A stretch of 64,000 bases of DNA, from the NCBI GenBank assembly GCA_050743265.1, contig JBOGEN010000203.1, positions 16,907-80,906 of the forward strand, in the 5' to 3' direction. The stretch is from Actinomycetes bacterium (lineage in GTDB: Bacteria; Actinomycetota; Actinomycetes; JBOGEN01). Position numbers and translations under genes: made by a program. Positions 8,537 through 25,759 of this stretch are shown here, piece after piece (positions within the stretch are counted from its first letter, which is position 1; every line of letters starts with the position of its first letter). Under the pieces are notes generated by a model, which was not told where the DNA came from, ran no database searches, and saw only the letters and a list, made by a program, of their open reading frames with translations.

Positions 8537-8681
8537 GCGACCCGAGGCTAGGCACGCCTCGACGGCGACGGCTGCCCCGCGGCGGCGACCGTCAGCACCC
8601 CGTAACCCCGCTCACCCTCGTCAGCACCCTGTAACCCGTGGACGCGTTCCGGCGGGCGCCGCGCGGGGGCACCGTCCTGCC

Positions 8682-9347: not shown

Positions 9348-10102
9348 GCGGTCCACTCGCACCGACCCGGGGCACTGCCGCTCCCCCCACGCTCGTCGTC
9401 CTGGCGAAGGCGCCCGTTCCCGGCGCCGTGAAAACCCGGCTCACCCCGCCGCTGTCGCCTGCCCGGGCCGCGGACCTGGCCGCCGCAGCCCTGCTGGACA
9501 CGCTCGACGCGGTCGCGCGGGCCGCCCGCGCCCTCGGTGGCCCTCGTCCCGTTCTCGCCCTCGCCGGCGACCCGCGGGACGCGGTGCGCGCCGCGGCGCT
9601 TCGGCGCTCCCGGTGGTCGTTCACCGTCGTCCGCCAGCGGGGGACGGGCCTGGACGAGCGCATCGCCGCGGCGCACCGGGACGCCTCCGCACTGCACCCC
9701 GCCCACGGCACGCTCCAGGTGGGCATGGACACCCCCCAGGTCACCGCGGAGCGCCTGGTATGCGCCGCCGGAAGGCTGGCCTCCCCCGGAGTGGACGCGG
9801 TGCTGGGCCTCGCCGAGGACGGTGGCTGGTGGGCACTGGGCCTGCGCGACCCGCGGACGGGGGACGCGGTGCGTGGCGTACCCATGTCGCGGGAGGACAC
9901 CGGCGCCCTGACCCGCGCGAGCCTCACCGCGTGGGGCGCCGTTCCTGTCCTGCTCCCGACGGCGCGGGACGTGGACACCTGGGACGACGCGCGGGCCGTG
10001 GCCGCCGCGCACCCGTCCGGTCGGTTCGGCGCGACCGTCCGCGAGCTCGCCGCCCCCGTCACGCAGGCGCGCCCTCACACCCGGACAGGGGTGCTGTCGT
10101 GA
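9344..10102 (+). CDS. DUF2064 / TIGR04282-like putative glycosyltransferase
   Basis: It shares a GTGA start/stop overlap with the GT2 gene. LVVLAKAPVPGAVKTRLTPPL is characteristic of the DUF2064 family, which has a GT-A/MobA-like fold. Confidence 0.7.
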   Translation: MSGPLAPTRGTAAPPTLVVLAKAPVPGAVKTRLTPPLSPARAADLAAAALLDTLDAVARAARALGGPRPVLALAGDPRDAVRAAALRRSRWSFTVVRQRGTGLDERIAAAHRDASALHPAHGTLQVGMDTPQVTAERLVCAAGRLASPGVDAVLGLAEDGGWWALGLRDPRTGDAVRGVPMSREDTGALTRASLTAWGAVPVLLPTARDVDTWDDARAVAAAHPSGRFGATVRELAAPVTQARPHTRTGVLS

Positions 10103-10725
10103 CCGCCCTCACCCCGTACGACGTGGCGTTGCGGACCGGCGGTCCGTGCTGGGTACGCGGGTGCGACGGTGCCGCGCACCCGCTGCCGCTGAACCGCTGG
10201 CTCGCCGACGCCGACGAGGACGACCAGGCGATGCTGAGCCGCTGCGCGGGCGCGACGCTCGACGTGGGCTGCGGGCCGGGGCGGCTCACGGCAGCACTCG
10301 CCCAGCGGGGTGTCGTCGCGCTCGGCGTGGACGTGTCGGCCGAGGCGGTCCGTACGGCCCACGCCCGCGGCGCCCCGGCTCTGTGCCGGGACGTGTTCCG
10401 TGGTGTCCCCGGCGAACGCCGATGGGCGCACGTCCTGCTCGCGGACGGCAACATCGGCATCGGCGGTGACCCGGTGGCACTGCTCGCCCGCACGCGCGAC
10501 CTCCTCGCCCCCGGTGGCACGGTCGTCGCCGACGTGCGCGGCCGAAGCACTGGCGTGCAGCGGTTCACCCTGCGGCTCGAGGGCCCGCATGCCCCACCCG
10601 CGACCATCCCCTGGGCCGTCCTCGGGCGGGACGCCCTGCCCGGTGTCGCCGCCACGGCCGGCCTCACCGTGCGGGACGTCCGCCCCGTCGGGCGGCGGTG
10701 GGTCGCCGTCCTGGGGAAGGGCTGA
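10099..10725 (+). CDS. class I SAM-dependent methyltransferase
   Basis: It shares a GTGA overlap with the upstream gene. Motif I is LDVGCGPGRL and the post-I acidic residue lies in VALGVDVS. Confidence 0.75.
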   Translation: MTALTPYDVALRTGGPCWVRGCDGAAHPLPLNRWLADADEDDQAMLSRCAGATLDVGCGPGRLTAALAQRGVVALGVDVSAEAVRTAHARGAPALCRDVFRGVPGERRWAHVLLADGNIGIGGDPVALLARTRDLLAPGGTVVADVRGRSTGVQRFTLRLEGPHAPPATIPWAVLGRDALPGVAATAGLTVRDVRPVGRRWVAVLGKG

Positions 10726-11897
10726 GCGCCTTGGCGGCACGACTGCGTGTACCGCGCGAGGACGACTTCCGCTCGCGGCTGCGTGACGAGCGGGTCTCGG
10801 CACGCATCGGGCTGTGGCTCGGTCTCGCGTTCGCCGTCTGCTTCGCCAGCGGCCTGCTCAGCCACGGCGCGCAGCACCCGCCTGCCTGGTTCAGCTGGCC
10901 GACCCGCCCGGTCGGCCTGTACCGCGTGACCCAGGGTCTGCACGTCCTCACCGGCATCGCGGCGATCCCGCTGCTGCTCGCGAAGCTCTACAGCGTCTAC
11001 CCGCGGCTGTTCGTGTGGCCGCCCGTCCGCTCGCCCGTCCACGCGCTGGAGCGCCTCTCGGTCCTCGTGCTCATGGGGGCCGCGTTCTTCCAGCTCGTCA
11101 CCGGGGTGCTCAACGTCGCCCAGTGGTACGCGTTCGGCTTCCCGTTCCCGAGCACGCACTTCGCGGTCGCCTGGGTGGCCGTGGGCGCGATCGTCGTCCA
11201 CGTGGGGGTGAAGCTGCCCGTCATCCGACGCGCCCTCGGGACGCCGCTGGAGGTCGAACCGGTCGCGGACGGCAGACCGCCAGGCGTGCCCCGGGCCGGA
11301 GTGGTGTCCCGTCGGACCTTCCTCTCCGGCACCGGGCTCGCAGCAGGTGCGGCTGTCGTCGCCACCGCGGGGATGGCCGTGCCGTGGCTGCGAGACGTCT
11401 CCGTGCTCGCCGTCCGCTCGGGCGACGGCCCGCAAGGGCTGCCGGTGAACACGTCCGCGGCCGCGGCCGGGGTGACGCCGCGAGCCACTGGCCCGGCCTA
11501 CCGACTCGGCCTGTCCGGGCCGGACGGGGAGCGGCGGCTCACACTCGAGGACCTGCGGGCGATGCGTCAGCACCGGGTAACCCTGCCGATCTCCTGCGTC
11601 GAGGGGTGGAGCGCGTCCGGGGACTGGTCCGGGCTTCGGGTCGCCGACCTCGTCCGGCTCGTGGGCGGCAGTCCCGAGGCGGACGTCCGGTTCACCTCGC
11701 TCGAGCGGGGCGGTGCGTGGAGTCAGAGCGTGCTGCCCGCCGCGCACGCGCGTGACCCGCTGACCCTGCTCGCGCTGCGCCTCAACGGCGAGGTCCTGCA
11801 CCCCGACCACGGGTTCCCCTGCCGGCTCATCGCGCCCAGCCGTCCCGGCGTGCTGCAGACGAAATGGGTGCACCGGGTGGAGGTGCTGAAGGCATGA
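10698..11897 (+). CDS. membrane-anchored molybdopterin oxidoreductase (sulfite oxidase / MsrP family Moco domain fused to an N-terminal 4-TM His-rich domain)
   Basis: N-terminal TM helices carry conserved His residues and are followed by the Tat-like RRTFLSGTGLAAGAA. The Moco domain then shows the Cys ligand context ISCVEGWS. The true start may be the TTG near 10731, because 10698 overlaps the methyltransferase by 28 nt. Confidence 0.7.
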   Translation: MGRRPGEGLSALAARLRVPREDDFRSRLRDERVSARIGLWLGLAFAVCFASGLLSHGAQHPPAWFSWPTRPVGLYRVTQGLHVLTGIAAIPLLLAKLYSVYPRLFVWPPVRSPVHALERLSVLVLMGAAFFQLVTGVLNVAQWYAFGFPFPSTHFAVAWVAVGAIVVHVGVKLPVIRRALGTPLEVEPVADGRPPGVPRAGVVSRRTFLSGTGLAAGAAVVATAGMAVPWLRDVSVLAVRSGDGPQGLPVNTSAAAAGVTPRATGPAYRLGLSGPDGERRLTLEDLRAMRQHRVTLPISCVEGWSASGDWSGLRVADLVRLVGGSPEADVRFTSLERGGAWSQSVLPAAHARDPLTLLALRLNGEVLHPDHGFPCRLIAPSRPGVLQTKWVHRVEVLKA

Positions 11898-12304
11898 CTG
11901 CCGTTCGTGCGCTGCTCGTCCTCGCCGGAGCGGCGGCCATCGGGTACGGCATGCTGCACCTGCTCGACGACCCAGGGGGCCTGGCGCACGTCGCGCCCTG
12001 GTACGTCCTCCCCGTCCTCGTCCACGACGTGCTGCTCGCCCCCGCGGCTGCCGTCGTCGGGTGGCTGGGCGCGCGGCTGCTCCCGGCACGCGTACGCGGC
12101 GTGTTGGGGGTCGGCCTGCTCACGGTCGGTGCCCTGACTGCGCTGACGCTCGTGGCAGTACTCCGCCCCTCGCCGCGCCCGACCACCCTGCTCGACCGTG
12201 ACTATGTCACCGGGTACGCCGTCGCGGTCGCCGCCGTAGCCGCCGGCGTCCTGCTCGGCCTGACCGTCGGAGCGGGCCGACGCCGCCGAGCGCGGGACGG
12301 GTAG
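11894..12304 (+). CDS. small hydrophobic membrane protein (4 TM)
   Basis: Its ATG overlaps the stop of the Moco-enzyme gene in an ATGA arrangement. The sequence is Leu/Ala/Val-rich throughout. Confidence 0.45.
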   Translation: MTAVRALLVLAGAAAIGYGMLHLLDDPGGLAHVAPWYVLPVLVHDVLLAPAAAVVGWLGARLLPARVRGVLGVGLLTVGALTALTLVAVLRPSPRPTTLLDRDYVTGYAVAVAAVAAGVLLGLTVGAGRRRRARDG

Positions 12305-12482
12305 CAGGAGCGTCCCCCGCCTCCCGGTGACGGCGAACATCCTGAACCAGAGGCTCATGAGCGGACCCAGTAGCTGACCAGCGCGGCCAAGGGCCAGCGG
12401 CGGTGAGCGTCTACGGCGAGGCTGGTCCGCCGGCGCGGCGCGTTCATCCACCGTCTGGACCAGATGAAGAGGGTAGGTCTCG

Positions 12483-13550
12483 ATGCCTTCGGTGCTGCCA
12501 AGATGGCTTCTGGACTTTGAAGGGGGACCGGTGCGGGTCTTCGTGAGCTATCGACGCGCGGATGTGGGTGGCTACGCCGGCCGGCTCAGTGATGCCCTGG
12601 TGAGTCGGCTTGGTCCGGACAACGTCTTCTTTGACGTCGCGACGATTCCTGCCGGGCGGGACTACAGCGCCGAGATCGATAGTGCGCTGGCTGCCTCGGA
12701 CGCGACACTCGCCGTCGTCGGCCCGGGGTGGCTGACCGCCGGCGCGCCGGACGGCACCCGACGCCTGGACCAGCCCGGAGACGTGGTGCGCCGGGAGCTG
12801 GCCCGGGCCCTCGCGGCGAACATCCCGGTGGTGCCGGTCCTCCTCGGCGGGGCCACGCTGCCTTCGGAAGACCAGTTGCCCGGTGAGCTGGCCGAGCTGG
12901 CGCTTCGGCAGGCCTTCGTGATCCGCGACGACTCCTTCCACCGTGACGTCGATGGCTTGCTGAACTCGCTTCGCGGTAAGCGCACTGCACCCGTAGGGCG
13001 TCGCCGGCGCTGGCTTGTTGGTGCGGTCGCGGCGGCCCTGTTGGCCCTGCTTGTGGGCACCCTCTGGTTCGTGACCCGCCCCACAAGCAACAGCGACGGT
13101 GCCACCAGCGGAGACCTCACTGGCTGCCCCACGCCTGGATCGACGTGGACATCGGTCAAGCTGGCGGGAAAGCCGTCCCCGCGCATCAAGGACACCGATG
13201 GCTCAGTCGTCATCCAGGTCAACGCGGCACGCTGGCGTCCCTACGGTCCCGGCACCTGGCAGATCGTTCTCAACACTGCGATGGAGAATCACAACTCCAT
13301 CGACCGGCAGCACGGACCCTGGTACTACCGAGACTTCCAGGTAGCCCAGCGAGCGTTCGACGCCACCTGCTTCGACACTCCACGGGAAACCTACCCGGCT
13401 CCGGGGGAGATCGCCGACGGCCACGTCGGGTTCGAGGTCTCCTGCAAACCGACGGGTGCTATGGACCTCGTCTTCAACTCACCCGTCGACAACAGCAGGA
13501 CTCGGCTTCGCATCACGACGGCATCGCGTCCTAGCGATTGTGTGAGCTGA
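12483..13550 (+). CDS. TIR-domain protein with one TM helix and a C-terminal Cys-containing extracytoplasmic domain
   Basis: VRVFVSYRRADV...NVFFDV...VVRRELARAL is a TIR_2-type domain with a conserved Glu. It is followed by RRRWLVGAVAAALLALLVGTLWFV, which is a TM helix, and then about 160 aa containing 4 Cys. An alternative GTG start at 12528 has the RBS GAAGGGGGA. GC is lower than in the flanking genes. Confidence 0.75.
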   Translation: MPSVLPRWLLDFEGGPVRVFVSYRRADVGGYAGRLSDALVSRLGPDNVFFDVATIPAGRDYSAEIDSALAASDATLAVVGPGWLTAGAPDGTRRLDQPGDVVRRELARALAANIPVVPVLLGGATLPSEDQLPGELAELALRQAFVIRDDSFHRDVDGLLNSLRGKRTAPVGRRRRWLVGAVAAALLALLVGTLWFVTRPTSNSDGATSGDLTGCPTPGSTWTSVKLAGKPSPRIKDTDGSVVIQVNAARWRPYGPGTWQIVLNTAMENHNSIDRQHGPWYYRDFQVAQRAFDATCFDTPRETYPAPGEIADGHVGFEVSCKPTGAMDLVFNSPVDNSRTRLRITTASRPSDCVS

Positions 13551-13559
13551 TCCTCAACC

Positions 13560-13578
13560 CGGGCGTTTGAGACGCCCG
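13560..13578. terminator. candidate bidirectional terminator hairpin between the convergent TIR and giant-protein genes
   Basis: CGGGCGT-ttgag-ACGCCCG forms a 7-bp GC-rich stem with a 5-nt loop. It lies in the 83-bp gap between the two stop codons. Confidence 0.4.
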
Positions 13579-13633
13579 ACGAGTGCGATGAGTCGACCTG
13601 TGCGAGGTGTGCGGTCGACCGTCCAGGACGAGA

Positions 13634-16600
13634 CTAGGGAATCACCGTGATCTGGATCTGGTCGGTGGCCATGGCACCCTCCTGGTCGGTCACCGTCACC
13701 GTCGCGGTGTACGTACCGGCTGTCAGGTAGCGGTGGGTGGCCCGCGAGCCCGACCCGGTTCCGCCGTCCCCGAAGTCCCAGGCGTAGCGCAGTTGGGTCT
13801 CCGGACCGTTCGGATCGTCCGCGGTAGCGGCGAACCGCACCCGCAGTGGCGCGCTGCCTGAGGTGACGTTGGCGGTCGCGACCACCGTCGGCGGCGTCCC
13901 GGCGCCCACGGTGATCGTCATCGCGGCCGTTGCCTGCTCCCCCTCGTCGTCGGTGACGAACAGGGTCGCCGTGTAGGTGCCCGGCTCGGTGTAGACGTAC
14001 TTGGGGCTGCGCATTGTCGAGCTCGTGCCGTCGCCGAACCGCCAGTCGTAGGTCAAGGGCCCGCCGTCTGGGTCGATCGCCGTCGGCGTGAAGGTCACCT
14101 CGAGCGGCGCATCGCCCGTCGTCGGATCCGCGGACGCCTGCACGGTCGGGGCACCTGGACCGCTGGTCCGCTCGCCGCAGGTCGCCGACAGCGCCACTCC
14201 GGCGGTGGTCTCGAGGCCGCCGAGCAGCTGGGTGAGGAACTGCTCCTCGACGTAGGACTCCTCGACGTGTCCCATCGCGGTGTACCACGAGCGGCCGCCG
14301 TCGTAGCGGTGGCACCACGTGACCGGATGGTCGTCATCCGTGGTGTTGCCGTCGTCCTCGTCGTACGTCGACTCGTCGATGTTCGCGAGGACGTGGACGT
14401 TTCCGGAACCGCGTGGGCTGAAGTCGGCCTCGCCGACCTCGGCGAAGTCGGGCGACTTGAAGTTGTACCACTCGTCGAGTCGCTCGTAGCCTCTCGGCAG
14501 GTCGGCGACCGACGGGTGCGCGTCGTCCTCCACGCGCACCGACGCGGTCTGGTTCGCCGGGTGGTTGCGGAAGTAGGCACCCACCAGCTTCCCGTACCAC
14601 GTCCAGCTGTACTCCGTGTCGGAGGCCGCATGGATGCCGGTGTAGCCACCGCCGCCACGGATGTACGCCTCGAACGCCGTCTGCTGCTGCGAGTCGAGCA
14701 CGTCGCCCGTCGTCGACAGGAACACCACCGTGTCGTAGTGCGAGAGCACGTCGGACCGGAAGGCCGTCGCGTCCTCGGTGTGGTCGACCTGGAAGCCGTG
14801 TTCGTCGCCCAACTGTTCGATCGCCGCATGGCCCTCGTCGATCGACGAGTGCCGGAACCCTGCCGTCTTGGAGAACGCCAGCGTGCGGAACCTGGCCGCC
14901 TCGTCGTCGGGCTGGAGCACCTGCACGTCGATCGTCCGCGCCACCGTGTCCTCGCCGTCGGACACCCGCACGCGCGGCTCGTACTCCCCTGGCTCGGTGT
15001 AGGTGTGCGTCGGGTTCTGCTGCGTCGAGTCCTCGGTGCCGTCGCCATCGAAGTCCCAGCTGTAGGTCAGCTCGTCCTCGTCCGGGTCCGTCGCCTCGAC
15101 GGTGAAGTCGGCCTCGAGCGGCCCGAAACCTATCGTCGGGTCAGCGCTCGCGGCATCGACCACCGGCGCGCGGTTCTGCGGCCCCTGGCCCGGGCAGCCG
15201 GTGCTGCCGCCGACCGAGAAGTACTCGAAGTGGGCCGTTCCGCCGCCGCTGTTCACGCCGAGCGTGAACAGGCCGAACCGCGGCGCGGCCATCTCGTTCG
15301 GGACGGCTTCGCCGATCGAGGTCCACGTCGTCCCGTCGAAGGAGTACTCGCCGCTGTACGTGGTGCCCGCCTTCGTGAGGCGCAGCGACACGGTTTCGGT
15401 GCCCGCGGGCAACGGTGACAGCTGCGGCTGCGGGTCCTGGACGGCACCGTCCACCTCGGAGCGCAGCTCGATCCGGTTCAGGGCCGTCTGTCCGTCGTCG
15501 GAGATGACGTCGTACTTGACGTAGTTGTCGTCGTCGGCGTACGCGAGCAGGCCAGCCTGCTCGTAGCCACCGCTCAGCTCACCTGCGTCGACGCGGGTCT
15601 CGATCACCCAGTCCGCGCCCGCGTGGTCAGGCGTCTGGAGCAGGAAGTTGCGCGTCGTGGCCGGGTCGCTGTCGGTGTAGATGTCACCGTTGACAGTGGT
15701 GACGTCGAGCGCCCCGTTGGACACGTTGTAGAGGCTCTCGTCCTCACGCACGATCCCGTTCCAGCGCGTCGTGTCGAGGTTCGTGCCGTCGAACTCGTCA
15801 CCGGTGCACCCACACTCGCCGCCCGGCACCTCACCGTTGAGCACGAAGTGGTCGAACGACACCGTGTCGCCCTGCCCGTCGGCCTGCGGCCCGAACGCGA
15901 ACACCCCGAAGTCGGGCGGTGCCATCGGGTTCTCGACCGGTGCCGGGAACGCCGTCCATGTCGCGCCGTCGAACGAGTACTCGCCGGTGTAGCTGGTGCC
16001 GGACTTGGTCAGCCGCAGCCAGTAGTCGGACGTGCCCTCGGGGACATCGACGTTGTCCTGCGGGTTCGCGACCGCCCCGCCGACCTCGGACCGCAGCTCG
16101 ATGCGGTTGATCCGCGTGGAGCCGGCGTCCGAGATCGGATCGAGCTTCACGTAGTTGTCGCCGTCCTGGTAGGCGATCAGGCCGCCCTGGCCGTAGCCGC
16201 CGTTGATCGTGCCTGACATCTTCGTCTCGATCGTCCAGTCGTCATCGGCGTGGCTGGCGTCCTGGAGGACGAAGTTGTTCGGCGGCGGGGTGGTGTCGCC
16301 GGTGTAGATGTCCCCGGGCGATGTGGTGATCGTCAGCTGGCCGTTGGCGACCGTGTACTCGCTCGGGACGTCGCGGACGATCGCGTCCCAGCGCGTCGTG
16401 TCCAGGCTCGAACCGTCGAAGGCGTCGCTGAGGCCGCTGCCGCCACCGCCGCCGGCCGAGTCCGGGTTGAACCGGATCCAGTCGAAATGGGCCACCGGGA
16501 AGGTCGGGGCCTGGTCGGAGAGCGCCACCGGCCCGACCCGTGGGTTGTCGAGCGTTGCCAGCGACGCCGGCCTGCCGACCGGGAGGAACTCCTCGCCGTC

Positions 16601-19600
16601 GAACGAGTAGAAGGCGGTGAGCTGTTGCCCGTCGGAGACGAGCCGGACCCAGTAGGTGAGCGGCGACTGGTCGGGGATGCCGCCCAGCTTGTCCTCGGCC
16701 GCGTTGCGTGGGATGCCTCCGGACTCGTAGATGAACTCGAAGTCACGCGCGCCGCCGGCGTGGATCATGTGCACCGACGCCCAGTTGTCGTCGTCGGAGT
16801 ACACGCGCAGGCCTGCCTGCTGGTAGTTGTCGGTCAGCGGGTCGGTGGTGATCTTCGCGGTCACCTCGGCGGCACCGTCGGGCAGCGGTTGCACGACGAT
16901 GTTGCGGGCGCTCGTGCCCGGCCCGAAGATCGATCCGTTGTCGATCGGGAAGTTCAGGTTGCCGCCTGAGACCGTGGGCGGCCGCGTGTCGTCGGGCCTG
17001 ATCACCGTCCACCGGTTCAGGTCGAGCGCGTCCCCGTCGAACTCGTCGGAGCGCACGCCTGTCGGGCACGTGCCGCCACCGGCCCCGGTGACGCGCACCT
17101 CGGCCGTGGCGGTGCTCTCGCCGCCGTCCGGGTCGGTGACGGTCACGCGGGCCGTGTACGTGCCGGGCTGCTCGTAGGTGTACGTCGGGTTCTGCTCGGT
17201 CGACGTGTCGTCGCCGGTGCCCGCGACGCCGAAGTCCCAGGCGTACGTCAGCGCGCCGCCCTCGGGATCGGTCGCGTCGGCGGTGAGATGGACCGTCAAC
17301 GGCGCCTCACCCGTGGTCGGATCGGCGCTCGCGGTCACCTCGGGCGCGGCCGTGGTGGCAGCCCCCTTGCCGACGAACTGGATCCAGTTGAGGTTCATCA
17401 GCCCGCCCTGGTCCGTGGGGTGGCGGAACACGAAGAACAGCTCGTGCGTACCACCGGGCGGTGTGGTCAGCGGCAGCTCGACGTCGGCCCACGTCTGCCA
17501 GCCGCCGGTGGGCGCGATGGTCGGCGTCTCGGCCACCAGCGGCCCGTCGGGTGCGTCGGCGCGGACCTCGATGGTCCCGCCGGCACCCGCGGAGGCGACG
17601 CGGAACCGCATGCTCGTGATGTCCTTGAGGTTCATCGGGTCGAACGACACGTAGTCACCGTTCTCGATGAAGCCGATGTTCTGCCCTCCGCCGGTGTCCG
17701 TGGTGGTCTCGGTCTGCACACCGGCGTCGCCGCCGCCGACGGCGCCGGGCACGCGGCCGGTCGACGTGAAGAACTCGGCCTGCTGGCGCTTGCGCCGCAG
17801 CAGCGCCTCGGCGCGCCCGGTGATCGCCCCCGCGCCGCCGCCCTGCGCCTGGTCGGTGTAGACGGCCTCGATCACCGTGAACGTGTTCGCCGTCTCACCG
17901 TGGCCGCCCGCGTCGAGGGTCTCGAACGTCCCCGAGCAGCCGGTCTGCTCCGACACCTCGTGCGCGTGCTCGTCGTGACCGAGCGAGATGTTCAGCGTCA
18001 CATCGGCGCAGCTGATCGACCCGTCGGTGGTGCTGCCGTCCTCGGCGTCGGTGACCGTGATCTCGTACGGCACCTCGTCGCCGAACGCGGCGAACTGGCC
18101 GTGCTCCGGGATGTCGATCGTCACCTCGGGCGCGGTGTTGCCGACCACGATCTGCACGTTGTCCACGCCGGTCTGCCCAGCCTGGTCTGTCACGCGCAGC
18201 GACGCGGCGTACGTGCCGGCGGCCGTGTAGGTATGGGTCGGGTTGACCTCGTTCGAGGTCGGCGAGCCGTCGCCGAAGTCCCACTCGTAGGTGAGCGACG
18301 TGCCGTCAGGGTCGACCGAGCCCTCGCTGGAGAAGGTGACCTCGAGCGGCGCCTGCCCGCTCGTCGGCGTGGCCGCGGCGTGCGCGACCGGGCGCCGGCC
18401 GGCACCGACGTAGTCGATCCGGTAGACACCTGAGTCGGCGTTGTTGCCGCCGAAGCCCGAACCCCACTCGATCAGGTACAGGGAGCCGTCCGGACCGAAG
18501 TCGAGGTCCATCGGGCGCTTGTAACATCCGTTCGTGCCGGCGTTCTGCTGGCAGCCGGAAGCGCCCAGGTACGGGAACTGCCGCACGTCGGTGGCGTCAC
18601 CCTCGCCGTCGAGCGTGGCGTGCTTGATCCAGCCGTTGTTCCACTCGCCGAGGAACCACTCGTCGTCGTAGTACTCGGGGAACTGGCTCGGCGGGCCGCT
18701 GGGGTCGTAGTGGTACCGCGGGCCGCCGGTCGGCGCGCCGCCGGTTCCGAGCCCGGGGAACCGGGTGTCGACCTCGGAGTAGCCCATCCACATCGTCGCC
18801 GGGCGGGCGGCCGGGATGTTCGTCAGCCCAGTGCTGTTGGGCGACTCGTTGACCGGGTTGGCGCAGTCGAACGGCGCGCCGTAGGTGATCGGCGTCGTCG
18901 AGAAGTCCGCGTCGTGGTAGGGCGTGTTCTGGCGGACGCAGTACGGCCAGCCATAGTTGCCCGCACTGGTGACCGCGTTGAACTCGACGCTGCCCTGGGG
19001 TCCCTTGCCGGCAACTGTGGCGCCCGCGTCCGGGCCGTAGTCGCCCATCAGCACCCACCCCGTCGCGGGGTCGACGGTGAACCGGAACGGGTTGCGGAAG
19101 CCCATCGCAAAGATCTCCGGCCGGGTGGCCGCGGTCCCGGTCGGGAACAGGTTGCCCGCCGGGATCGTGTACGTCGTACCGGCGCCGGGCTGCGTGCCGG
19201 GCGCGATCGTCTCCATCGGCACGACCCGCAGGAACTTGCCGTTCAGGTTGTCGGTGTTGGCCGCAGTGCGCTGGGAGTCCCACGCCTCGCGCCCCGGGCG
19301 CTCGTCAAGCGGTGCGAAGCCGTCGGAGGCGAAGGGGTTGGTGTTGTCGCCGGTCGAGACGTAGAGGCTGCCATCAGGCCCGAAGTAGAGCGACCCGGAC
19401 GAGTGGCAGCACTCGTCGCGCTGGTGCGTCCAGGTGAGGATGACCTGCTCGGAGTCCATGTCGAGCGAGTTGCCGTTGACCCGGAAGCGCGACACCCGCT
19501 GCTCGAGCGACGACTCAGGCAGCGCGGAGTAGGCGAGGTAGATCCAGCCGCTCTGTTCGAAGTCCGGCGCGAGCTGCATGCCGATCAGGCCGTTCTCCTC

Positions 19601-20758
19601 GCCGGTGTAGACCGGGATGGTGCCTGCCGTGACCGTCTGCTCGGTGTCCGGCGACCAGATCCGCACGTCGCCGTTGCGCTCGGTGAAGAACACGCGCCCG
19701 TCCTCGGCGACGTCGAGCTCGAAGGGGTTCTGCGTGTCGTCGTCGATCGTGACCTTCTCGAAGTCCTCAGGACCCGGCGCTGCCTGGCGCGGCTCGCCGC
19801 AGTCGGCCGGCACGGCCCGCGTCGCGGTCTGGATCCCGCCGAGGACGTGCTGCGTGTACTCGGGCTCGCTGAACGAGGCGTCCGTGTGACCCATGCCCGT
19901 GTACCACATGCGGCCACCGTCGAAGTCCGAGCACCAGGCGATCGGGTGGTCGTCGTCGGTGGCGTTGCCGTCCTGCTCGTCATAGGTCGTCTCGTCGACC
20001 GTCGCGAGCACGTGGACCCCGCTGTCACGCGGGCTGACGTCGGTGCCTCCGCCGCCCACGCTCGGGTTGGCGGGTGACTGGTAGTTGTACCACTCGTCCG
20101 TGCGCGTCCAGCGGGCCGGCAGCCCGGTGGTGGACGGCTCGTCAGGGTCCTCGATGTCGACGGAGGCCGTCGGGGTTCCGGCGGGGTGGTTGCGGAAGTA
20201 GCCACCCAGCATCTGGCCGTACCAGCCCCACGAGTACTCGGTGTCGGCCGCGGCGTGGATGCCCACGAAGCCGCCGCCGGCCTGCATGTAGCGCTCGAAC
20301 GCGGCCTGCTGGGTCGCGTCGAGCACGTCGCCGGTCGTGGAGAGGAACACCACCGCGTCGTACTGCGCGAGGTTCGCGTCGGTGAACTGCGCGGCGTCCT
20401 CGGTGGCGTCGACGTTGAACCCGTTGTCGGCGCCCAGCTGCTGGATCGCGGTGACTCCGGACGGGATCGAGTCGTGCCGGAAGCCTGCGGTCTTCGAGAA
20501 CACGAGCACGTTCTCGAGCTGGAAGAGCTGCGCCGTCGCGCCCCCCGACTCGCCGTCGGCGGACGACCTGGCTGGCACAGACAGGTCCTCGACGGCCGAC
20601 GACTCCGCCTTCACTGACGAACCAGGCGCTGTGGACTCAGCCGGTGTCGACACCTGGCCGGGGGCCAGCGCGTACGCGGGCGCCAGGCCGAGCAAGCTCA
20701 CCACTAGTGCCATTGAGGCCACCACGGCCAGCCCCGCGACGCTCTTCGACGGCCTCAT
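13634..20758 (-). CDS. giant secreted multidomain protein: ThuA - PQQ-dependent sugar dehydrogenase (SGDH beta-propeller) - PKD - CBM6-like - PKD - 4x ConA-like lectin/glucanase - PKD - ThuA - 2x PKD
   Basis: The ATG at 20758 has GGAGGG 7 nt upstream, and a signal peptide MRPSKSVAGLAVVASMALVVSLLGLAPAYA follows. There are two ThuA blocks reading FSKTAGFRH...GGG(F/Y)(V/T)GIHAA. The propeller segment contains PFELDVAEDGRVFFTERNGDVRIW. Four DEFDG/DAFDG..LD..RW modules and several PKD modules of the type PLEVTF...YEWDFGDG are present. Confidence 0.85.
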   Translation of the reverse strand: MRPSKSVAGLAVVASMALVVSLLGLAPAYALAPGQVSTPAESTAPGSSVKAESSAVEDLSVPARSSADGESGGATAQLFQLENVLVFSKTAGFRHDSIPSGVTAIQQLGADNGFNVDATEDAAQFTDANLAQYDAVVFLSTTGDVLDATQQAAFERYMQAGGGFVGIHAAADTEYSWGWYGQMLGGYFRNHPAGTPTASVDIEDPDEPSTTGLPARWTRTDEWYNYQSPANPSVGGGGTDVSPRDSGVHVLATVDETTYDEQDGNATDDDHPIAWCSDFDGGRMWYTGMGHTDASFSEPEYTQHVLGGIQTATRAVPADCGEPRQAAPGPEDFEKVTIDDDTQNPFELDVAEDGRVFFTERNGDVRIWSPDTEQTVTAGTIPVYTGEENGLIGMQLAPDFEQSGWIYLAYSALPESSLEQRVSRFRVNGNSLDMDSEQVILTWTHQRDECCHSSGSLYFGPDGSLYVSTGDNTNPFASDGFAPLDERPGREAWDSQRTAANTDNLNGKFLRVVPMETIAPGTQPGAGTTYTIPAGNLFPTGTAATRPEIFAMGFRNPFRFTVDPATGWVLMGDYGPDAGATVAGKGPQGSVEFNAVTSAGNYGWPYCVRQNTPYHDADFSTTPITYGAPFDCANPVNESPNSTGLTNIPAARPATMWMGYSEVDTRFPGLGTGGAPTGGPRYHYDPSGPPSQFPEYYDDEWFLGEWNNGWIKHATLDGEGDATDVRQFPYLGASGCQQNAGTNGCYKRPMDLDFGPDGSLYLIEWGSGFGGNNADSGVYRIDYVGAGRRPVAHAAATPTSGQAPLEVTFSSEGSVDPDGTSLTYEWDFGDGSPTSNEVNPTHTYTAAGTYAASLRVTDQAGQTGVDNVQIVVGNTAPEVTIDIPEHGQFAAFGDEVPYEITVTDAEDGSTTDGSISCADVTLNISLGHDEHAHEVSEQTGCSGTFETLDAGGHGETANTFTVIEAVYTDQAQGGGAGAITGRAEALLRRKRQQAEFFTSTGRVPGAVGGGDAGVQTETTTDTGGGQNIGFIENGDYVSFDPMNLKDITSMRFRVASAGAGGTIEVRADAPDGPLVAETPTIAPTGGWQTWADVELPLTTPPGGTHELFFVFRHPTDQGGLMNLNWIQFVGKGAATTAAPEVTASADPTTGEAPLTVHLTADATDPEGGALTYAWDFGVAGTGDDTSTEQNPTYTYEQPGTYTARVTVTDPDGGESTATAEVRVTGAGGGTCPTGVRSDEFDGDALDLNRWTVIRPDDTRPPTVSGGNLNFPIDNGSIFGPGTSARNIVVQPLPDGAAEVTAKITTDPLTDNYQQAGLRVYSDDDNWASVHMIHAGGARDFEFIYESGGIPRNAAEDKLGGIPDQSPLTYWVRLVSDGQQLTAFYSFDGEEFLPVGRPASLATLDNPRVGPVALSDQAPTFPVAHFDWIRFNPDSAGGGGGSGLSDAFDGSSLDTTRWDAIVRDVPSEYTVANGQLTITTSPGDIYTGDTTPPPNNFVLQDASHADDDWTIETKMSGTINGGYGQGGLIAYQDGDNYVKLDPISDAGSTRINRIELRSEVGGAVANPQDNVDVPEGTSDYWLRLTKSGTSYTGEYSFDGATWTAFPAPVENPMAPPDFGVFAFGPQADGQGDTVSFDHFVLNGEVPGGECGCTGDEFDGTNLDTTRWNGIVREDESLYNVSNGALDVTTVNGDIYTDSDPATTRNFLLQTPDHAGADWVIETRVDAGELSGGYEQAGLLAYADDDNYVKYDVISDDGQTALNRIELRSEVDGAVQDPQPQLSPLPAGTETVSLRLTKAGTTYSGEYSFDGTTWTSIGEAVPNEMAAPRFGLFTLGVNSGGGTAHFEYFSVGGSTGCPGQGPQNRAPVVDAASADPTIGFGPLEADFTVEATDPDEDELTYSWDFDGDGTEDSTQQNPTHTYTEPGEYEPRVRVSDGEDTVARTIDVQVLQPDDEAARFRTLAFSKTAGFRHSSIDEGHAAIEQLGDEHGFQVDHTEDATAFRSDVLSHYDTVVFLSTTGDVLDSQQQTAFEAYIRGGGGYTGIHAASDTEYSWTWYGKLVGAYFRNHPANQTASVRVEDDAHPSVADLPRGYERLDEWYNFKSPDFAEVGEADFSPRGSGNVHVLANIDESTYDEDDGNTTDDDHPVTWCHRYDGGRSWYTAMGHVEESYVEEQFLTQLLGGLETTAGVALSATCGERTSGPGAPTVQASADPTTGDAPLEVTFTPTAIDPDGGPLTYDWRFGDGTSSTMRSPKYVYTEPGTYTATLFVTDDEGEQATAAMTITVGAGTPPTVVATANVTSGSAPLRVRFAATADDPNGPETQLRYAWDFGDGGTGSGSRATHRYLTAGTYTATVTVTDQEGAMATDQIQITVIP

Positions 20759-21583
20759 TGCGCCACCCTCCGGACCTCGAGACACGAGCCCCCCGCGAGG
20801 GACACACGCCGAGCGCAGGCCCCCAGAGCCTGAGAGTTTGTACTCCTTTACCGAACTTGGGCGCAATATCACTTTTCTCTAGTGTGAACCAAGTGAGAGT
20901 AAAATCCTCGCACAAGGGCCGCCGTCCAGAGGCGCGCGTGCGCCGAGTGCTCGTACGGCCACGCAACGCGACGATGCCGCTGCCAGCGTCAACTACCCGC
21001 AGCTTCGAGGGAAGATCGAGCTCCCTGCCCCCGGAAGACGATCAACGTCCCGCCTGCCTCGGTGAGGCCAACGAAGGCGAGCGCACGCCTGGCGGGCTTT
21101 GGCGGCCGTGCGAGTCGCCTCCCGATCCGCGGCGAGCACGTCATTGCCCATCTCCTGAGACCCTGGGACTCACGCGCTGGTTCGGATACGCCCGCTATCT
21201 AGGACTTGTCGTTTCATTCTTTCGTCTCAGGCATCACGGAGAAAGAGGACGAGCTGGCCCTGAGGGTGACCCCGTGCAAGGCTGTGCATGCAGAAAGTGG
21301 CAATGCGCTCGGGTGTCGCTGCCGCATCCAGCCCTGTTCTCGCGAAGCCGCACACGTCCCCTCTCTTGACTCACATACTTGCCGACGCGGCATGGCCGCC
21401 ATGGTCTGGCGTGCGCGGTTGGGGTCTGTGCACGAGGTGCTGAACCTGCACGGAGAATCTTCAAGAACGAAAAGGGGACCGCACCATGAGGCCCGGAAAT
21501 CTGATCTCTGCGAACCACACCCGCCCGGTACCGACCGTGGCCGAGCAAACGTTGAGCCACGTCGTCTCTGGAGGAGGGCGCAG

Positions 21584-22642
21584 ATGACTCACCGACGAGA
21601 GGTGGTCGTCGTCGGAGGCGGGCAGGCGGGGCTCGCGGTGGGGTACTACCTGGCACAACAAGGGCGCGACTTCACCATCCTCGAGGCTTCTGCCGAGCCC
21701 GCGACCGCGTGGCGTGCGCGCTGGGACTCGCTCCGTCTGTTCACACCGGCGCGCTACAGCGCGCTACCGGGCCTCGCATTTCCCGGTGCGCCAGACCATT
21801 ACCCGACCCGGGACGAGGTCGCCGACTATCTCACCGGCTACGCCGCCCGGTTCGGGCTGCCGGTCGAGCTGGACAGCACGGTTCGCTCGGTGCGCAAGAC
21901 CGACGGGACCTACCTGGTCGAGCTCGACGACCGATCGTATGAAGCCGACCAGGTGGTGGTCGCCACCGGACCGTTCCAGGTGCCCCACCTGCCGGCCATG
22001 GCCGAGCAGCTCGACGACACCGTCAGGCAGTTCCACAGTGTCGCCTACCGGTCGCCGCGTGATGTGGCAGGAGGGCCGGTCCTCGTCGTTGGCGGCGGGA
22101 ACACCGGTTTCCAGATCGCCCAGGAGCTCTCCGGCACCCACGCGGTCCACCTGGCAATCGGATCCCGGCAGACACCGCTTCCCCAGCGCCTGCTGGGTCG
22201 CGACCTGTTCTGGTACCTCGAGGCCGTCGGGTTGATGCGCAAGACGACGACGTCCCGGATCGGGCGCAGGATGTCGGGCAAGGACACGCTCATCGGCTCC
22301 TCACCCCGGGCTCTGCGCCGCCGACACGGAGTCGTGCTCCACGGACGAGCTGTCACCGCGGAGGGGTCGACCGTCAGCTTCAGCGACGAGACGACGCTCG
22401 ATGTCGGCACGGTGATCTGGGCCACCGGCTTCACACCCGATCACGCATGGGTCGATGTCCCGGTGTTCGACGAGAGGGGCCGCCTCGCGCACAAGCGGGG
22501 TGTGACCTCCTCACCCGGGCTCTACTTCCTCGGGATGAGCTGGCAGCACACCAGAGGCTCGGCCCTGCTCGGCTGGGTCACGGACGACGCCGAGTTCCTC
22601 GCAGAACAGATCAGCGCCTTCCGCGTCAGCGCCACCAGCTGA
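21584..22642 (+). CDS. CzcO-like FAD/NAD(P)-binding flavoprotein (putative K+/cation-transport-associated flavin monooxygenase)
   Basis: The ATG is preceded by GGAGGAGGG. The first dinucleotide motif is VVVVGGGQAGLAVGY and the second is VLVVGGGNTGFQIA. Confidence 0.75.
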   Translation: MTHRREVVVVGGGQAGLAVGYYLAQQGRDFTILEASAEPATAWRARWDSLRLFTPARYSALPGLAFPGAPDHYPTRDEVADYLTGYAARFGLPVELDSTVRSVRKTDGTYLVELDDRSYEADQVVVATGPFQVPHLPAMAEQLDDTVRQFHSVAYRSPRDVAGGPVLVVGGGNTGFQIAQELSGTHAVHLAIGSRQTPLPQRLLGRDLFWYLEAVGLMRKTTTSRIGRRMSGKDTLIGSSPRALRRRHGVVLHGRAVTAEGSTVSFSDETTLDVGTVIWATGFTPDHAWVDVPVFDERGRLAHKRGVTSSPGLYFLGMSWQHTRGSALLGWVTDDAEFLAEQISAFRVSATS

Positions 22643-22718
22643 ACGCCGACGATGCACAGCCGAACACCGTTGACCGAACGAGCGCACCGCTGCGCTCGGG
22701 ATCACACCTGGGGGTGAC

Positions 22719-24464
22719 ATGAGTACCACCGAGAACCACTTCGAGACCGACGTTGCCGGACTTCCCCTCGCACACCCCCATGAGCGGGTGGACCTGGCAG
22801 ACGGCGACGAGTTCGACATTCGCATCGCCCCGGTCGCCAAGCAGATCGGTGACACGACGGTCCGGATGCTGGCCTACAACGGATCGGTCCCCGGGCCCAT
22901 GCTGCGGGTGCGGGAAGGCTCGGAGCTCATCGTCAACGTCGAGAACCAGGGCGACCTGGAAGCGACTGTGCACTGGCACGGGCTACGCCTGGAAAACCGC
23001 TCCGACGGGACGCACCAGACCCAGGAGCCGATCAAGGTAGGCGGCCGCTTCTCCACCGTCGTGGCATTTCCCGACCCCGGGGTCTACTGGTACCACCCTC
23101 ACATCCGCGGCGACTACGGGCTGGAGATGGGTCTGTACGGCACCGTCCTGGTGGAGCCGGCCGAGGCCGAGTACTGGCCTCCGGCCCACCGTGAGGTGCT
23201 CCTCACCCTCGATGACCTGCTGCTCGAGGACGGCAAGGTGGCGCCGTTCAGCCGCGCAGAGACGACCCACGCGGCAATGGGCCGCTTCGGCGATGTCCTA
23301 CTCGTCAACGGCGACCCCGACCTGTCCTTGACCGCGCAGGTGGGCGAGGTCGTCCGCTTCTACCTGGTCAACACGGCCAACACCCGCGTCTTCAAGGTCA
23401 CCCTCCCAGGGGTCCGGATGAAGCTGGTCGGTGGCGACAGCGGACACGTCGAGCGAGAAGAGTTCGTCGACGACGCGGTACTGGCGCCCTCGGAGCGTGT
23501 CGTCCTCGACGTGCTGTTCGACAGCCCCGGCGAGATGCGGCTCGAGCACCACACGCCAGGGCAGGTGTACCCGCTCGCGTCCATCCACGTCGGCGGCGAG
23601 CCGGTTGAACCGCCCCTCCAGGAGCAGTTCCACGTCCTGCGCACGAACGCCGACATGGTGGCCGAGCGGGAACGCGTCGCGGAGTACGCGCAGGCTCCAC
23701 CGGACAAGACTCTGGCCTTCATCGCTGAGATGGACATGACCGGACCCGCGGGAGACGGTCCCGTCGCCTTCTCGTGTCCGATGCACCCCGAGGTGGTCAG
23801 GGACGTCCCCGGTCACTGCCCCACCTGCGGGATGAAGCTCCTCGCCGTCGAGGCTCCCGCCACCACCTACGTCTGCCCGATGCACCCCGAGGTGGTCAGC
23901 GACACCCCCGATCACTGCCCCACCTGCGGGATGAAGCTCCTGCCGGACGCGCTGGTGGCCGCGGCGGGGAACAGCCACGACCACGCTGACCACGAGGAGG
24001 GGCACGGGCGCCAGACCCACGACGAAGCCGACCACCAGGGCCACGGCCACGCCACGGCCGACGGCATCGAGTGGGAAGACGACATGGTCGAGGTCAACCG
24101 TCTGACGACCGCCGCCAACATGCGCTGGAAGCTGATCGACCGTGACACCTCGGCCGAGAACACCGCGATCGACTGGCGCTTCCGAGTCGGGGACCAGGTC
24201 AAGATCCGACTCCTCAACGAGATGGCCGGAGACCACCCGATGCATCACCCGTTCCACGTCCACGGGGCAGGGCGCTTCCTCGTCCTGCGCCGCGACGGAA
24301 ACGAGGAGTCCAACCTGGTCTGGAAAGACACCGTGCTGGTGCGCACCGGGGAGACGGTCGACATCCTGCTGGACGTCACCAACCCCGGTCTGTGGATGGC
24401 GCACTGTCACATCGCCGAACACCACGAGACCGGAATGATGTTCAGCTTCGAAGTGACGGAATGA
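22719..24464 (+). CDS. multicopper oxidase with a duplicated heavy-metal-binding insert and a His-rich tract, no signal peptide
   Basis: The copper-ligand motifs are HWHG, WYHPH, HPFHVHG and HCHIAEHH. Two CPMHPEVV..CPTCGMKLL repeats are followed by HDHADHEEGHGRQTHDEADHQGHGH. Confidence 0.85.
   Translation: MSTTENHFETDVAGLPLAHPHERVDLADGDEFDIRIAPVAKQIGDTTVRMLAYNGSVPGPMLRVREGSELIVNVENQGDLEATVHWHGLRLENRSDGTHQTQEPIKVGGRFSTVVAFPDPGVYWYHPHIRGDYGLEMGLYGTVLVEPAEAEYWPPAHREVLLTLDDLLLEDGKVAPFSRAETTHAAMGRFGDVLLVNGDPDLSLTAQVGEVVRFYLVNTANTRVFKVTLPGVRMKLVGGDSGHVEREEFVDDAVLAPSERVVLDVLFDSPGEMRLEHHTPGQVYPLASIHVGGEPVEPPLQEQFHVLRTNADMVAERERVAEYAQAPPDKTLAFIAEMDMTGPAGDGPVAFSCPMHPEVVRDVPGHCPTCGMKLLAVEAPATTYVCPMHPEVVSDTPDHCPTCGMKLLPDALVAAAGNSHDHADHEEGHGRQTHDEADHQGHGHATADGIEWEDDMVEVNRLTTAANMRWKLIDRDTSAENTAIDWRFRVGDQVKIRLLNEMAGDHPMHHPFHVHGAGRFLVLRRDGNEESNLVWKDTVLVRTGETVDILLDVTNPGLWMAHCHIAEHHETGMMFSFEVTE
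23775..23942. repeat. tandem direct repeat (two ~68-nt copies, period 99 nt) inside the multicopper oxidase gene
   Basis: tgtccgatgcaccccgaggtggtcag...cactgccccacctgcgggatgaagctcct recurs nearly identically 99 nt downstream. It encodes the duplicated CPMHPEVV-x8-HCPTCGMKLL module. Confidence 0.8.
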
Positions 24465-24679
24465 CGCGTGGCGTGACCAACCTCGTCGAACGCCTGCCGG
24501 TGCACGCGGCCGGGCAACGACGCGGTGAGGTCATGGGCCAATCATCCTCAACGTCACCGCGTCGGGGAGGTGAACGATCGGCTGCTGAGCTTGTCGAGCG
24601 CCCGGGGAAGCTTGGACACGTCCGACTGCGAGAAGACTGGTCGGGGAGGGGATGGTCGTCCGCCGGCGCCGTGTTGTTC

Positions 24680-25378
24680 TCAGTCCGCTCGGGATGGCGC
24701 GCCGCGGGCGGCTTCATGGTGTGCGCGGTCGACGTCGGGGCTGCGGTACATCCGCTCCGGGATCTTCCCCAGCTCTGAGGTGTGCAGCCTCTGCGGTGTC
24801 AGCCCGTAGAACTGCTGGAAGCTCATGATCAACGGCCGCCACCGGTCCGGGTCGATCCGGTCGGTGTCACCAGCCAGGAGCAGAGTCTCGTCCACGTGCA
24901 CGCGGCGGACACGCACCTCCACGACCAGGGTCCGCCCGCTCAGCTCTGGGTCGTTTTCGGCAAGGCCGTGGCTGGCCTCGACGACCGCCTCCAGCTGGAT
25001 CGGGCATTCCATGACCCGGGGCGGGGTGACCGTCTCCGACCGCGTCTGGGTCAGTCGCGCGGTCGCGAACTTGTCACGCTCGTGTCGGTACCCGCGGCGT
25101 TCCTTGCGCCGTGGTACAGGGTTCGACCCGGTCGTGCGCGCGATCCGGTCGACGGCGTCGACCATGTCCTCGGATGGCAGGTTGAGGACGCACTCGCCCG
25201 TACGCAACAGGTTCTCGGGCGTCTTCGAGGTCATGTCGAGGCCGAGGACACACCGCCAGCCGAGCCAGAACGCCGAGGACATCGGGCTCAGGTTCGCCGA
25301 GCCGTCCTCGTTCATGCTGCTGATCAGCACGACCGGAGTCCCGACGTAGAGGATGCCTGGCTCGGCATTCCGATGCAT
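24680..25378 (-). CDS. flavin reductase-like FMN-binding protein
   Basis: The internal ATG MHRNAEPGILYVGTPVVLISSMNEDGSANLSPMS has GGAGAAGGGAAG upstream. The flavin_reduct motif is GTPVVLISS..DG..N. The ORF-track N-terminal extension of 66 aa lacks support. Confidence 0.7.
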   Translation of the reverse strand: MHRNAEPGILYVGTPVVLISSMNEDGSANLSPMSSAFWLGWRCVLGLDMTSKTPENLLRTGECVLNLPSEDMVDAVDRIARTTGSNPVPRRKERRGYRHERDKFATARLTQTRSETVTPPRVMECPIQLEAVVEASHGLAENDPELSGRTLVVEVRVRRVHVDETLLLAGDTDRIDPDRWRPLIMSFQQFYGLTPQRLHTSELGKIPERMYRSPDVDRAHHEAARGAPSRAD

Positions 25379-25759
25379 GGGCGACTTCCCTTCTCCAGCA
25401 GTCCCGTCGTGGGAAGACGCGGCGGACCCGGAGAATGTGAGGTCTCCTGCAACTGATCCCATAAGTGGCTGGCCAGCGCGGCCCATGGAGCGATGGCGGC
25501 GGGTCAGCGGCCGTGACGGCTGCTCGTTGCCACGCTGCGCCCGACAGCCGGCCGTGGTCCTGCCGGACGGTGGCAAGACTTCGGGAACGGCTCTTGAAGA
25601 ACCCCTTGCCCATCAGGTCGGCCGAGATCGCTCGCTTCGCCCAGCCACAACTCATCGAAGCGGAGCAGCCCTGAAGCCTGGCGGCACAGACCATCTGCCG
25701 ACCGGCGATAAACGTCAGGTCGCGTGTATCACTCGTGCTCGATCACGACGGCACCCAAG

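Follow-up and report, generated by a model that had tools for sequence, protein, structure and literature searches.

A giant secreted ThuA-propeller protein of an actinomycete belongs to a widespread family with a tentative role in glycoside breakdown

Introduction

What might a secreted bacterial protein of more than two thousand amino acids (aa) do that joins two ThuA domains to a sugar-dehydrogenase-type propeller and to a series of binding and spacer modules? The question is raised by a single gene in a stretch of 64,000 nucleotides (nt) from an Actinomycetes bacterium (assembly GCA_050743265.1, contig JBOGEN010000203.1, positions 16,907 to 80,906), which is referred to below as the window. 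A first-pass annotation of the window had suggested extracellular sugar oxidation or 3-keto-sugar chemistry tethered to a polysaccharide-binding scaffold, in an architecture that had not been characterised. According to our analysis, the giant protein is an ordinary member of a widespread, already annotated actinobacterial family. We tentatively posit, at a probability of about 45%, that it takes part in the breakdown of hemicellulose or glycosides as a secreted enzyme docked on glycans; the ThuA-propeller pair would perform sugar redox chemistry, and the other modules would serve for targeting and spacing.

Architecture and export of the giant protein

Counted from the first GTG, a single uninterrupted open reading frame (ORF) covers positions 13634-20872 of the minus strand, and the GC content at third codon positions (GC3) is 0.93 across the entire frame. 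A ribosome-binding site (GGAGGGTGG) precedes the ATG at 20758, and the closest orthologue, P0001, begins with a similar N-terminus. This start yields the uninterrupted frame at 13634-20758 of about 2374 aa that had been proposed before. The gene is monocistronic and is located between one convergent and one divergent gene. An exact-sequence look-up of the protein in public assemblies gave no match. The domain map of the protein, compiled from a Pfam search, a chunked self-comparison and a motif search, is as follows; the chunked comparison replaced a whole-protein BLASTP self-search, which returned just the trivial full-length match.

13634..20758, minus strand: complete coding sequence, 2,374 aa plus stop, ATG start at 20758
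20669..20758, minus strand: predicted Sec-type signal peptide, aa 1-30
20513-20668, minus strand: low-complexity linker, aa 31-82, the cupredoxin slot in many relatives
19769..20512, minus strand: ThuA domain 1, aa 83-330 (PF06283 profile positions 1-207 of 209; 4JQS, E 1.5e-19)
18404..19747, minus strand: six-bladed propeller of the soluble glucose dehydrogenase (sGDH) type, aa 338-785 (PF07995; PDB profile search; Foldseek)
18143..18394, minus strand: PKD domain 1, aa 789-872 (Pfam and self-comparison)
17759..18133, minus strand: immunoglobulin (Ig)-like beta-sandwich, called the X domain here, aa 876-1000 (conserved)
17372..17728, minus strand: carbohydrate-binding module (CBM) of family CBM6, aa 1011-1129 (PF03422)
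17084..17338, minus strand: PKD domain 2, aa 1141-1225 (Pfam and self-comparison)
16445..17047, minus strand: ConA-like module 1 (GH43_C2/DUF1349), aa 1238-1438 (46.2 and 37.7 bits)
15809..16426, minus strand: ConA-like module 2, aa 1445-1650 (55.8 and 37 bits)
15194..15799, minus strand: ConA-like module 3, aa 1654-1855 (57.5 and 48.5 bits)
14924..15172, minus strand: PKD domain 3, aa 1863-1945 (Pfam and self-comparison)
14147..14887, minus strand: ThuA domain 2, aa 1958-2204 (Pfam and self-comparison)
13643..14149, minus strand: PKD domains 4 and 5, aa 2204-2285 and 2290-2372, where the protein ends

The N-terminus, MRPSKSVAGLAVVASMALVVSLLGLAPAYA followed by LAP, shows the n/h/c arrangement of a signal peptide with a cleavage site read by eye as AYA/LAP, and both a lipobox cysteine and a twin-arginine motif are absent. 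The protein thus looks like a Sec export substrate, in line with the secretion assumed earlier. A motif search found no LPxTG, LAxTG or LPx[AS]G in the protein, and its C-terminus is a PKD domain; judged by these features, it carries no anchor motif at its end and is not sortase-anchored. Of sortase anchoring and free secretion, which the first-pass annotation had left to be distinguished, this favours the latter.

The modules assigned earlier, ThuA, sGDH-type propeller, CBM6, ConA-like and PKD, were upheld by hidden Markov model and fold comparison. The CBM6/35-like module was recognized as CBM_6 (PF03422) with 100 bits against a cutoff of 28.9, covering profile positions 8-124 of 125. At least five PKD domains had been expected, and five stretches were found with PF18911 and likewise with PF00801. 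The number of ConA-like modules had to be corrected from four to three. Three D-x-F-D-G...RW modules start at aa 1238, 1445 and 1654, and Pfam likewise gives three DUF1349/GH43_C2 stretches, all of them above both gathering scores. Modules 2 and 3 are about 58% identical to each other, and module 3 shows a weak match to the C-terminal domains of GH43 beta-xylosidases in the PDB. The idea that these modules might be DUF1080 3-keto-glycoside lyases was considered and dropped: no DUF1080 match was obtained even at E<=5, and the PDB matches of the modules, weak as they are, are to GH43 C-terminal domains.

The X domain was missing from the earlier domain list. This Ig-like domain of 125 aa lies between PKD1 and CBM6, is present in essentially every member of the family, and matched no Pfam family over aa 876-1000. 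Its invariant residues are C917, C941, H928, H931, H933 and H953, contained in the pattern LGHDxHxH...GC...GH. The two cysteines and the histidine cluster may form a disulfide-stabilised metal site.

Two intact ThuA domains and a propeller of the sGDH type

Pfam detects both ThuA domains (PF06283, two stretches, 478.9 bits against a cutoff of 33.4) where the first-pass annotation had placed them. The fold is matched in Foldseek by 4JQS and 4PXY (TMt 0.73-0.77) and also by 4E5V and 1T0B. The two copies are indeed paralogous, with 56.7% identity. ThuA1 shares on average 70.8% and at most 81% identity with the N-terminal copies of other proteins, vs a mean of 61% with their C-terminal copies; ThuA2 reaches 80% with C-terminal and 62% with N-terminal copies. 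Since each copy is nearer to its positional counterparts, the duplication, which an alignment had been proposed to date, is old and predates the divergence of these lineages. A residue was considered conserved when it was present in at least 97% of 171 family ThuA domains, and all 23 residues of this kind are kept in ThuA1 as well as in ThuA2, including those of the motifs FRH, GIH.A.DTEY.W, HP, DEWY, DE, DHP..W and GH. This full retention argues for two functional ThuA sites, neither of which would be a decaying copy.

The propeller matches GSDH (PF07995) with 123.6 bits against a cutoff of 25, and the peptide quoted for it earlier, PFELDVAEDGRVFFTERNGDVRIW, was located at aa 345-368. A profile of 27 propeller sequences retrieved from the PDB the structures 2ISM of T. 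thermophilus (3.6e-34), 2G8S, the Asd protein of E. coli (1.1e-25), and 1C9U, the sGDH of A. calcoaceticus (2.4e-22). An AlphaFold model of ThuA1 plus propeller, built on a shallow alignment, had a mean pLDDT of 78.5 and a pTM of 0.72; its top PDB match in Foldseek was the sGDH 1CQ1 (E 1.2e-21), followed by other sugar dehydrogenases dependent on pyrroloquinoline quinone (PQQ).

H452 aligns with His144 of sGDH, which we take to be the catalytic base of that enzyme, and lies inside a Cys-Cys-His motif (C450-C451-H452). It is invariant in 27 of 27 sequences and kept in at least 97% of 114 homologues. The residues that bind PQQ and calcium in sGDH are presumably Arg228, Asn229, Gln231, Gly247-Pro248, Lys377, Arg406 and Arg408. 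The equivalents of Arg228 and Asn229 are kept as R555 and N556 (in MGFRNPFR), the GP motif is kept, and R749 corresponds to Arg406. The family also has a conserved insertion of its own in the propeller (P.DER.gR...D.QR). On the strength of the alignments and the predicted structure, we regard the sGDH fold and the catalytic base as established.

The CCH motif (aa 450-452; 19403-19411, minus strand) is an observation in its own right, as its invariant vicinal Cys-Cys directly precedes H452 and is absent from the aligned sequences of solved sGDH and Asd. Vicinal disulfides beside PQQ occur in methanol dehydrogenase.

A widespread family with recurrent sugar-gene neighbours

The earlier statement that the architecture had not been characterised holds only in part. 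Among 8,000 candidates scored, the homology search gave at least 1,327 proteins at E<=1e-20, the named ones are labelled 'ThuA domain-containing protein', and one collinear member has been purified (see below). Protein clusters P0001-P0005 are 83-86% identical to the giant protein over 100% of the length, with identical module order. Collinear orthologues are found at six loci from independent assemblies (L001-L005 and L007), five of them at 83-86% identity and L004 at 79%; three of the six are labelled as Nocardioidaceae metagenome-assembled genomes.

When the six domain types of the giant protein were re-mapped onto its top 120 homologues, the core of ThuA, GSDH, PKD, X, CBM6, PKD and ConA repeats appeared in almost all of them and the complete two-ThuA layout in about 45. 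Most relatives from Solirubrobacterales/Thermoleophilia have four ConA-like modules. Ahead of ThuA1, 40 of the 120 carry an N-terminal type-1-copper domain of about 125 aa (H...C..H...M; aa 30-125 in P0006), labelled PF00127/PF13473 by Pfam. More remote relatives of the core come from Micromonosporaceae, Streptomyces, Kribbella, Georgenia, Rhodothermales, Balneolaceae, Chitinophagaceae, Pirellulaceae and Calditrichia.

To assess the gene neighbourhood of the family, the ORFs within the 8-kb flanks of the giant genes at 81 loci were grouped into families and counted; the second-largest cluster of this census consisted of antisense pseudo-ORFs within the giant genes and was disregarded. TIM-barrel genes of the AP_endonuc_2 (xylose-isomerase-like) family lie nearby in 34 of the 81 loci. 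At 12 of these 34 they encode bona fide XylA (TIGR02631, 611 and 541 bits against a cutoff of 447), while the remaining TIM barrels resemble inosose dehydratase or sugar-phosphate isomerases. A Gfo/Idh/MocA gene is present in 14 of the 81 loci, with levoglucosan dehydrogenase as the best match (388 bits, below the cutoff of 650). At about 30 of the 81 loci such a sugar gene is directly adjacent to the giant gene, mostly on the same strand and either overlapping or within a few hundred bases. Locus L020 is an example, with Gfo at 5418-6584, XylA at 6584-7744, the giant gene at 7785-13265 and a TIM barrel at 13277-14494.

Adjacency was seen in Solirubrobacteraceae, Kribbella, Actinophytocola, Micromonosporaceae, Rhodothermales and Chitinophagaceae/Sphingobacterium and thus spans Actinomycetota and Bacteroidota. 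Its recurrence across these lineages indicates more than shared ancestry. Further apparent operons of a giant gene with sugar genes were noticed at L006 (15805-16956) and L050 (4316-6696), and at L022, L074 and L080 convergent genes of the giant family on opposite strands flank a TIM-barrel gene.

A purified homologue from Cellulosimicrobium cellulans

The only experimentally handled family member in the literature searched is M768_06655 of Cellulosimicrobium cellulans F16, a hypothetical protein of a secreted complex described as 'cellulosome-like' (Dou et al., 2015, Sci Rep 5:13768, PMC4562250). It was the active isolated subunit and contains ThuA, GSDH, PKD, CBM_6 and PKD domains; it displayed beta-xylosidase/beta-glucosidase activity and belongs to no glycoside hydrolase (GH) family (PMC4562250). 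The protein has 1,642 aa and a Sec signal, and most of its sequence is printed in the supplement (PMC4562250). In our comparison with that printed part, residues 31-333 align with residues 83-407 of the giant protein (54.8% identity, E 2e-113) and residues 752-1392 with 837-1491 (41.9%, E 3e-126). The match is collinear and extends over the histidine cluster of the X domain and the ConA-like modules.

The same complex holds a ThuA+CBM6 protein, a second ThuA-GSDH-PKD-CBM6 protein, two DUF1080 proteins, an AP_endonuc_2+F5/8C protein and a laccase (PMC4562250). Later work on a non-Koshland glycan pathway identified DUF1080 proteins and 'sugar phosphate isomerases' of the AP_endonuc_2 type as 3-keto-glycoside lyases/hydratases, which act there together with Gfo-type 3-dehydrogenases. 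A secreted GSDH-PKD-CBM6-AP_endonuc_2 fusion, M768_15610, is also listed for the complex (supplement Table 4, PMC4562250). In the literature searched for ThuA together with PQQ, sorbosone dehydrogenase or GSDH, just Dou et al. (2015) was found.

Proposed function

For the substrate, cofactor, electron acceptor and role of ThuA in the giant protein, we infer the following scheme. Docking to glycans of plants or microbes would be the task of CBM6 and the three GH43_C2-like lectin modules along with the PKD/Ig spacers, and the rigid pair of ThuA1 and propeller would be the catalytic unit. The propeller would oxidise a sugar hydroxyl or hemiacetal with His452 as the base, with Arg555/Asn556 and with a quinone-type or metal cofactor, PQQ being a possible one. 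Electrons would pass to an external acceptor, such a role being suggested by the blue-copper domain that is fused to 40 of the 120 relatives and is lacking here. Both ThuA domains may act on or with the oxidised sugar, by analogy to ThuA and the Gfo-type ThuB in 3-keto-disaccharide formation; ThuAB is cited in the literature as a 3-keto-disaccharide-forming dehydrogenase, and where papers name an oxidase activity of the ThuA domain, it is assumed by analogy alone. The released or modified sugars might then feed the xylose and 3-keto-sugar catabolic genes that neighbour the giant gene in many other genomes. Xylo- and glucosides are the most likely substrates.

Several observations weigh against this scheme. 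In the propeller, three PQQ ligands of sGDH are replaced (Gln231 by Phe558, Lys377 by Asn and Arg408 by Met751), the NCBIfam model TIGR03606 for glucose/sorbosone PQQ dehydrogenases gives 55.4 bits against a cutoff of 434.55, and no pqq genes were found within the 64-kb window. The earlier assignment as a PQQ-type dehydrogenase thus stands for the fold, which HMM, PDB and Foldseek comparisons agree on; dependence on PQQ is possible, with some of the ligands kept and others replaced. Where relatives carry the cupredoxin, the giant protein has a low-complexity stretch of roughly 50 aa and no such domain. XylA, Gfo and TIM-barrel genes are absent from the window and from L001-L005 and L007, as is a ThuB-like Gfo/Idh/MocA gene beside ThuA, and no set of Gfo and lyase/hydratase, as in 3-keto-glycoside clusters, is present in the giant protein or the window. 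The sugar-gene context of the family is therefore extrapolated to the giant gene described here. For the extracellular sugar oxidation or 3-keto chemistry proposed at first, this means indirect support at the family level, from the roughly 30 of 81 loci and the 40 of 120 copper fusions, with the sugar genes themselves missing at this locus. The literature searched establishes no biochemical function for any ThuA domain. The activity of M768_06655, finally, comes from natively purified material alone, and its authors assigned no catalytic domain (PMC4562250).

Alternative explanations

Among the alternatives, a glycosidase without a GH domain survives best, although we consider it unlikely. Here beta-xylosides and beta-glucosides would be cleaved by oxidation and elimination via a 3-keto intermediate, by the giant protein alone or with secreted partners, without Koshland hydrolysis. 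sGDH-type enzymes characteristically oxidise C1, which speaks against a 3-keto route. The giant protein also lacks a lyase-type domain of the AP_endonuc_2 or DUF1080 families, and although Gfo and TIM-barrel genes adjoin genes of the family, the adjacent Gfo, XylA and TIM-barrel proteins of the relatives have no signal peptides and look cytoplasmic. The explanation draws on M768_06655, which acts as a beta-xylosidase/beta-glucosidase on a bulky taxane xyloside without a GH domain and co-purifies with secreted members of AP_endonuc_2 and DUF1080, the 3-keto-glycoside lyase/hydratase families; in the literature searched, this activity of 2015 was never repeated with recombinant protein.

A still bolder extension, to which we give even less credence, is that the ThuA-propeller giants form the core of an extracellular, CBM-tethered and NAD-independent oxidative system for glycoside cleavage of the 3-keto type. 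If so, the propeller with its vicinal-disulfide CCH site would oxidise the sugar ring, and ThuA, the ConA-like modules and/or secreted TIM-barrel and DUF1080 partners would eliminate and hydrate. This would explain the beta-xylosidase/beta-glucosidase activity in the absence of a GH domain and provide the first biochemical role for ThuA.

It is similarly improbable that the giant protein, without catalysis of its own, serves as an adhesin or as a surface or matrix scaffold that organises secreted enzymes on polysaccharide, with all its folds binding glycan or protein. Such a role would fit with the loss of roughly half of the canonical PQQ ligands, with HHIP-type propellers, which share the fold and are non-enzymatic binders, and with the solitary position of the giant gene in the window. 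ThuA-like folds have been described as structural or carbohydrate-binding domains, that of Agd3 having been tested as a carbohydrate-binding module, and M768_06655 is the most abundant subunit of its 'cellulosome-like' complex. A pure binder, however, hardly explains why family members are repeatedly fused to an electron carrier of the type-1 copper kind, nor the invariance, across lineages, of the catalytic His, the CCH motif, Arg-Asn and the 23 polar or aromatic ThuA residues in both copies, and the truncated C. cellulans subunit was still active when isolated.

Finally, an assembly artefact of collapsed or chimeric repeats, for which the first-pass annotation had asked one to watch in the PKD copies, can practically be dismissed: the repetition of PKD, ConA-like and ThuA modules might in theory lead an assembler astray, but the direct DNA repeats within the gene are at most 84% identical (over 32 nt) and at most 191 nt long (at 79%), too divergent and short for anything to have collapsed, and the high GC3 and the six independent collinear loci of about 2,370 aa likewise speak against it.

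Taken by itself, the giant gene is one more copy of a common family, without a cupredoxin and without informative neighbours. The interest lies in the family, whose only purified member acts as a glycosidase although it has no glycoside-hydrolase domain. This family is now linked to xylA and to levoglucosan-dehydrogenase-like and eliminase-like genes, to blue-copper fusions and to secreted AP_endonuc_2/DUF1080 partners, and these links yield a testable hypothesis of extracellular non-Koshland breakdown of hemicellulose and glycosides in soil Actinomycetota.

Surroundings of the gene in the window

The genes closest to the giant gene are listed below.

12483-13550, plus strand: TIR-domain gene (PF13676, E 4e-11), convergent with the giant gene
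21206-25576, first gene within this stretch: FAD/NAD(P) oxidoreductase, divergent from the giant gene
22719-24464: multicopper oxidase with two HMBD heavy-metal-binding repeats
24680-25576, minus strand: flavin reductase

The TIR protein has a weak ThsB-like match in PADLOC (E 1.5e-6) and may be a defence gene. The stretch at 21206-25576, upstream of the giant gene, is rich in redox functions (oxidoreductase, multicopper oxidase and flavin reductase). At L001, the locus with 83% identity, just a divergent oxidoreductase gene of the Pyr_redox_2 type is found in the matching position, a counterpart judged by location. A scan of the neighbours in the window revealed no carbohydrate genes around the giant gene. 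The remainder is ordinary chromosomal sequence that encodes a sulfatase, a two-component system, functions of nitrate/nitrite assimilation, Hen1, Tct transporters and PrpD. An assimilatory nitrate/nitrite reduction-like cluster lies at 30539-38255 (minus strand), with a NirB-like protein, a molybdopterin oxidoreductase and a major facilitator superfamily (MFS) transporter, and a Hen1-type RNA-repair methyltransferase with Hen1_L and methyltransferase domains is encoded at 42787-43965 (minus strand). The GC content of the window is high (67-77%), reaching 75-77% in 4001-12000 against 67-70% in the flanks, which include the giant gene.

Comparison with known systems

M768_06655 resembles the giant protein in being Sec-secreted and in its collinear core of ThuA, GSDH, PKD, His-cluster Ig, CBM6, PKD and ConA-like modules; it differs in its smaller size, and the readable parts of its sequence contain no second ThuA. 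Closer in layout are the proteins of Solirubrobacterales/Thermoleophilia (P0006, P0048; Solirubrobacter spp.), which are 55-71% identical to the giant protein and share the order ThuA, GSDH, PKD, X, CBM6, PKD, ConA repeats, PKD, ThuA and PKD repeats. In contrast to the giant protein, they have the fourth ConA-like module and the N-terminal cupredoxin, often with an additional basic domain at the C-terminus, and their genes are directly followed by xylA.

With sGDH and Asd (1C9U/1CQ1, 2G8S, 2ISM) the propeller has in common the six blades, the catalytic His, Arg-Asn, GP and one C-terminal Arg, whereas the three replaced ligands, the Cys-Cys before the His, the DER..R...D.QR insertion and the multidomain setting set it apart. 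The ThuA domains share PF06283 and the GATase1-like fold with rhizobial ThuA (from the thuEFGKAB trehalose/sucrose 3-keto pathway), 4JQS, 4E5V and 1T0B. Unlike rhizobial ThuA, those of the giant protein are duplicated, predicted to be extracellular, fused to a propeller and without a ThuB-like partner nearby; the Gfo/Idh/MocA gene adjacent to the giant gene in relatives is ThuB-like, as in rhizobial ThuAB.

The fungal AA12 pyranose dehydrogenase CcPDH and the bacterial GSDH-cytochrome c-CBM proteins of Teredinibacter turnerae likewise combine an sGDH-fold propeller with a CBM and are secreted on cellulose. AA12, the family of CcPDH and TrAA12, was absent among the sequence matches and was reached in Foldseek at the level of the fold at most (E 7e-11 to 8e-10, 11-12% identity). 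The giant protein differs from both in having no cytochrome, and AA12 enzymes are without ThuA and ConA-like modules. The electron-carrier domain of the AA12 and T. turnerae proteins may have its counterpart in the copper domain of the relatives.

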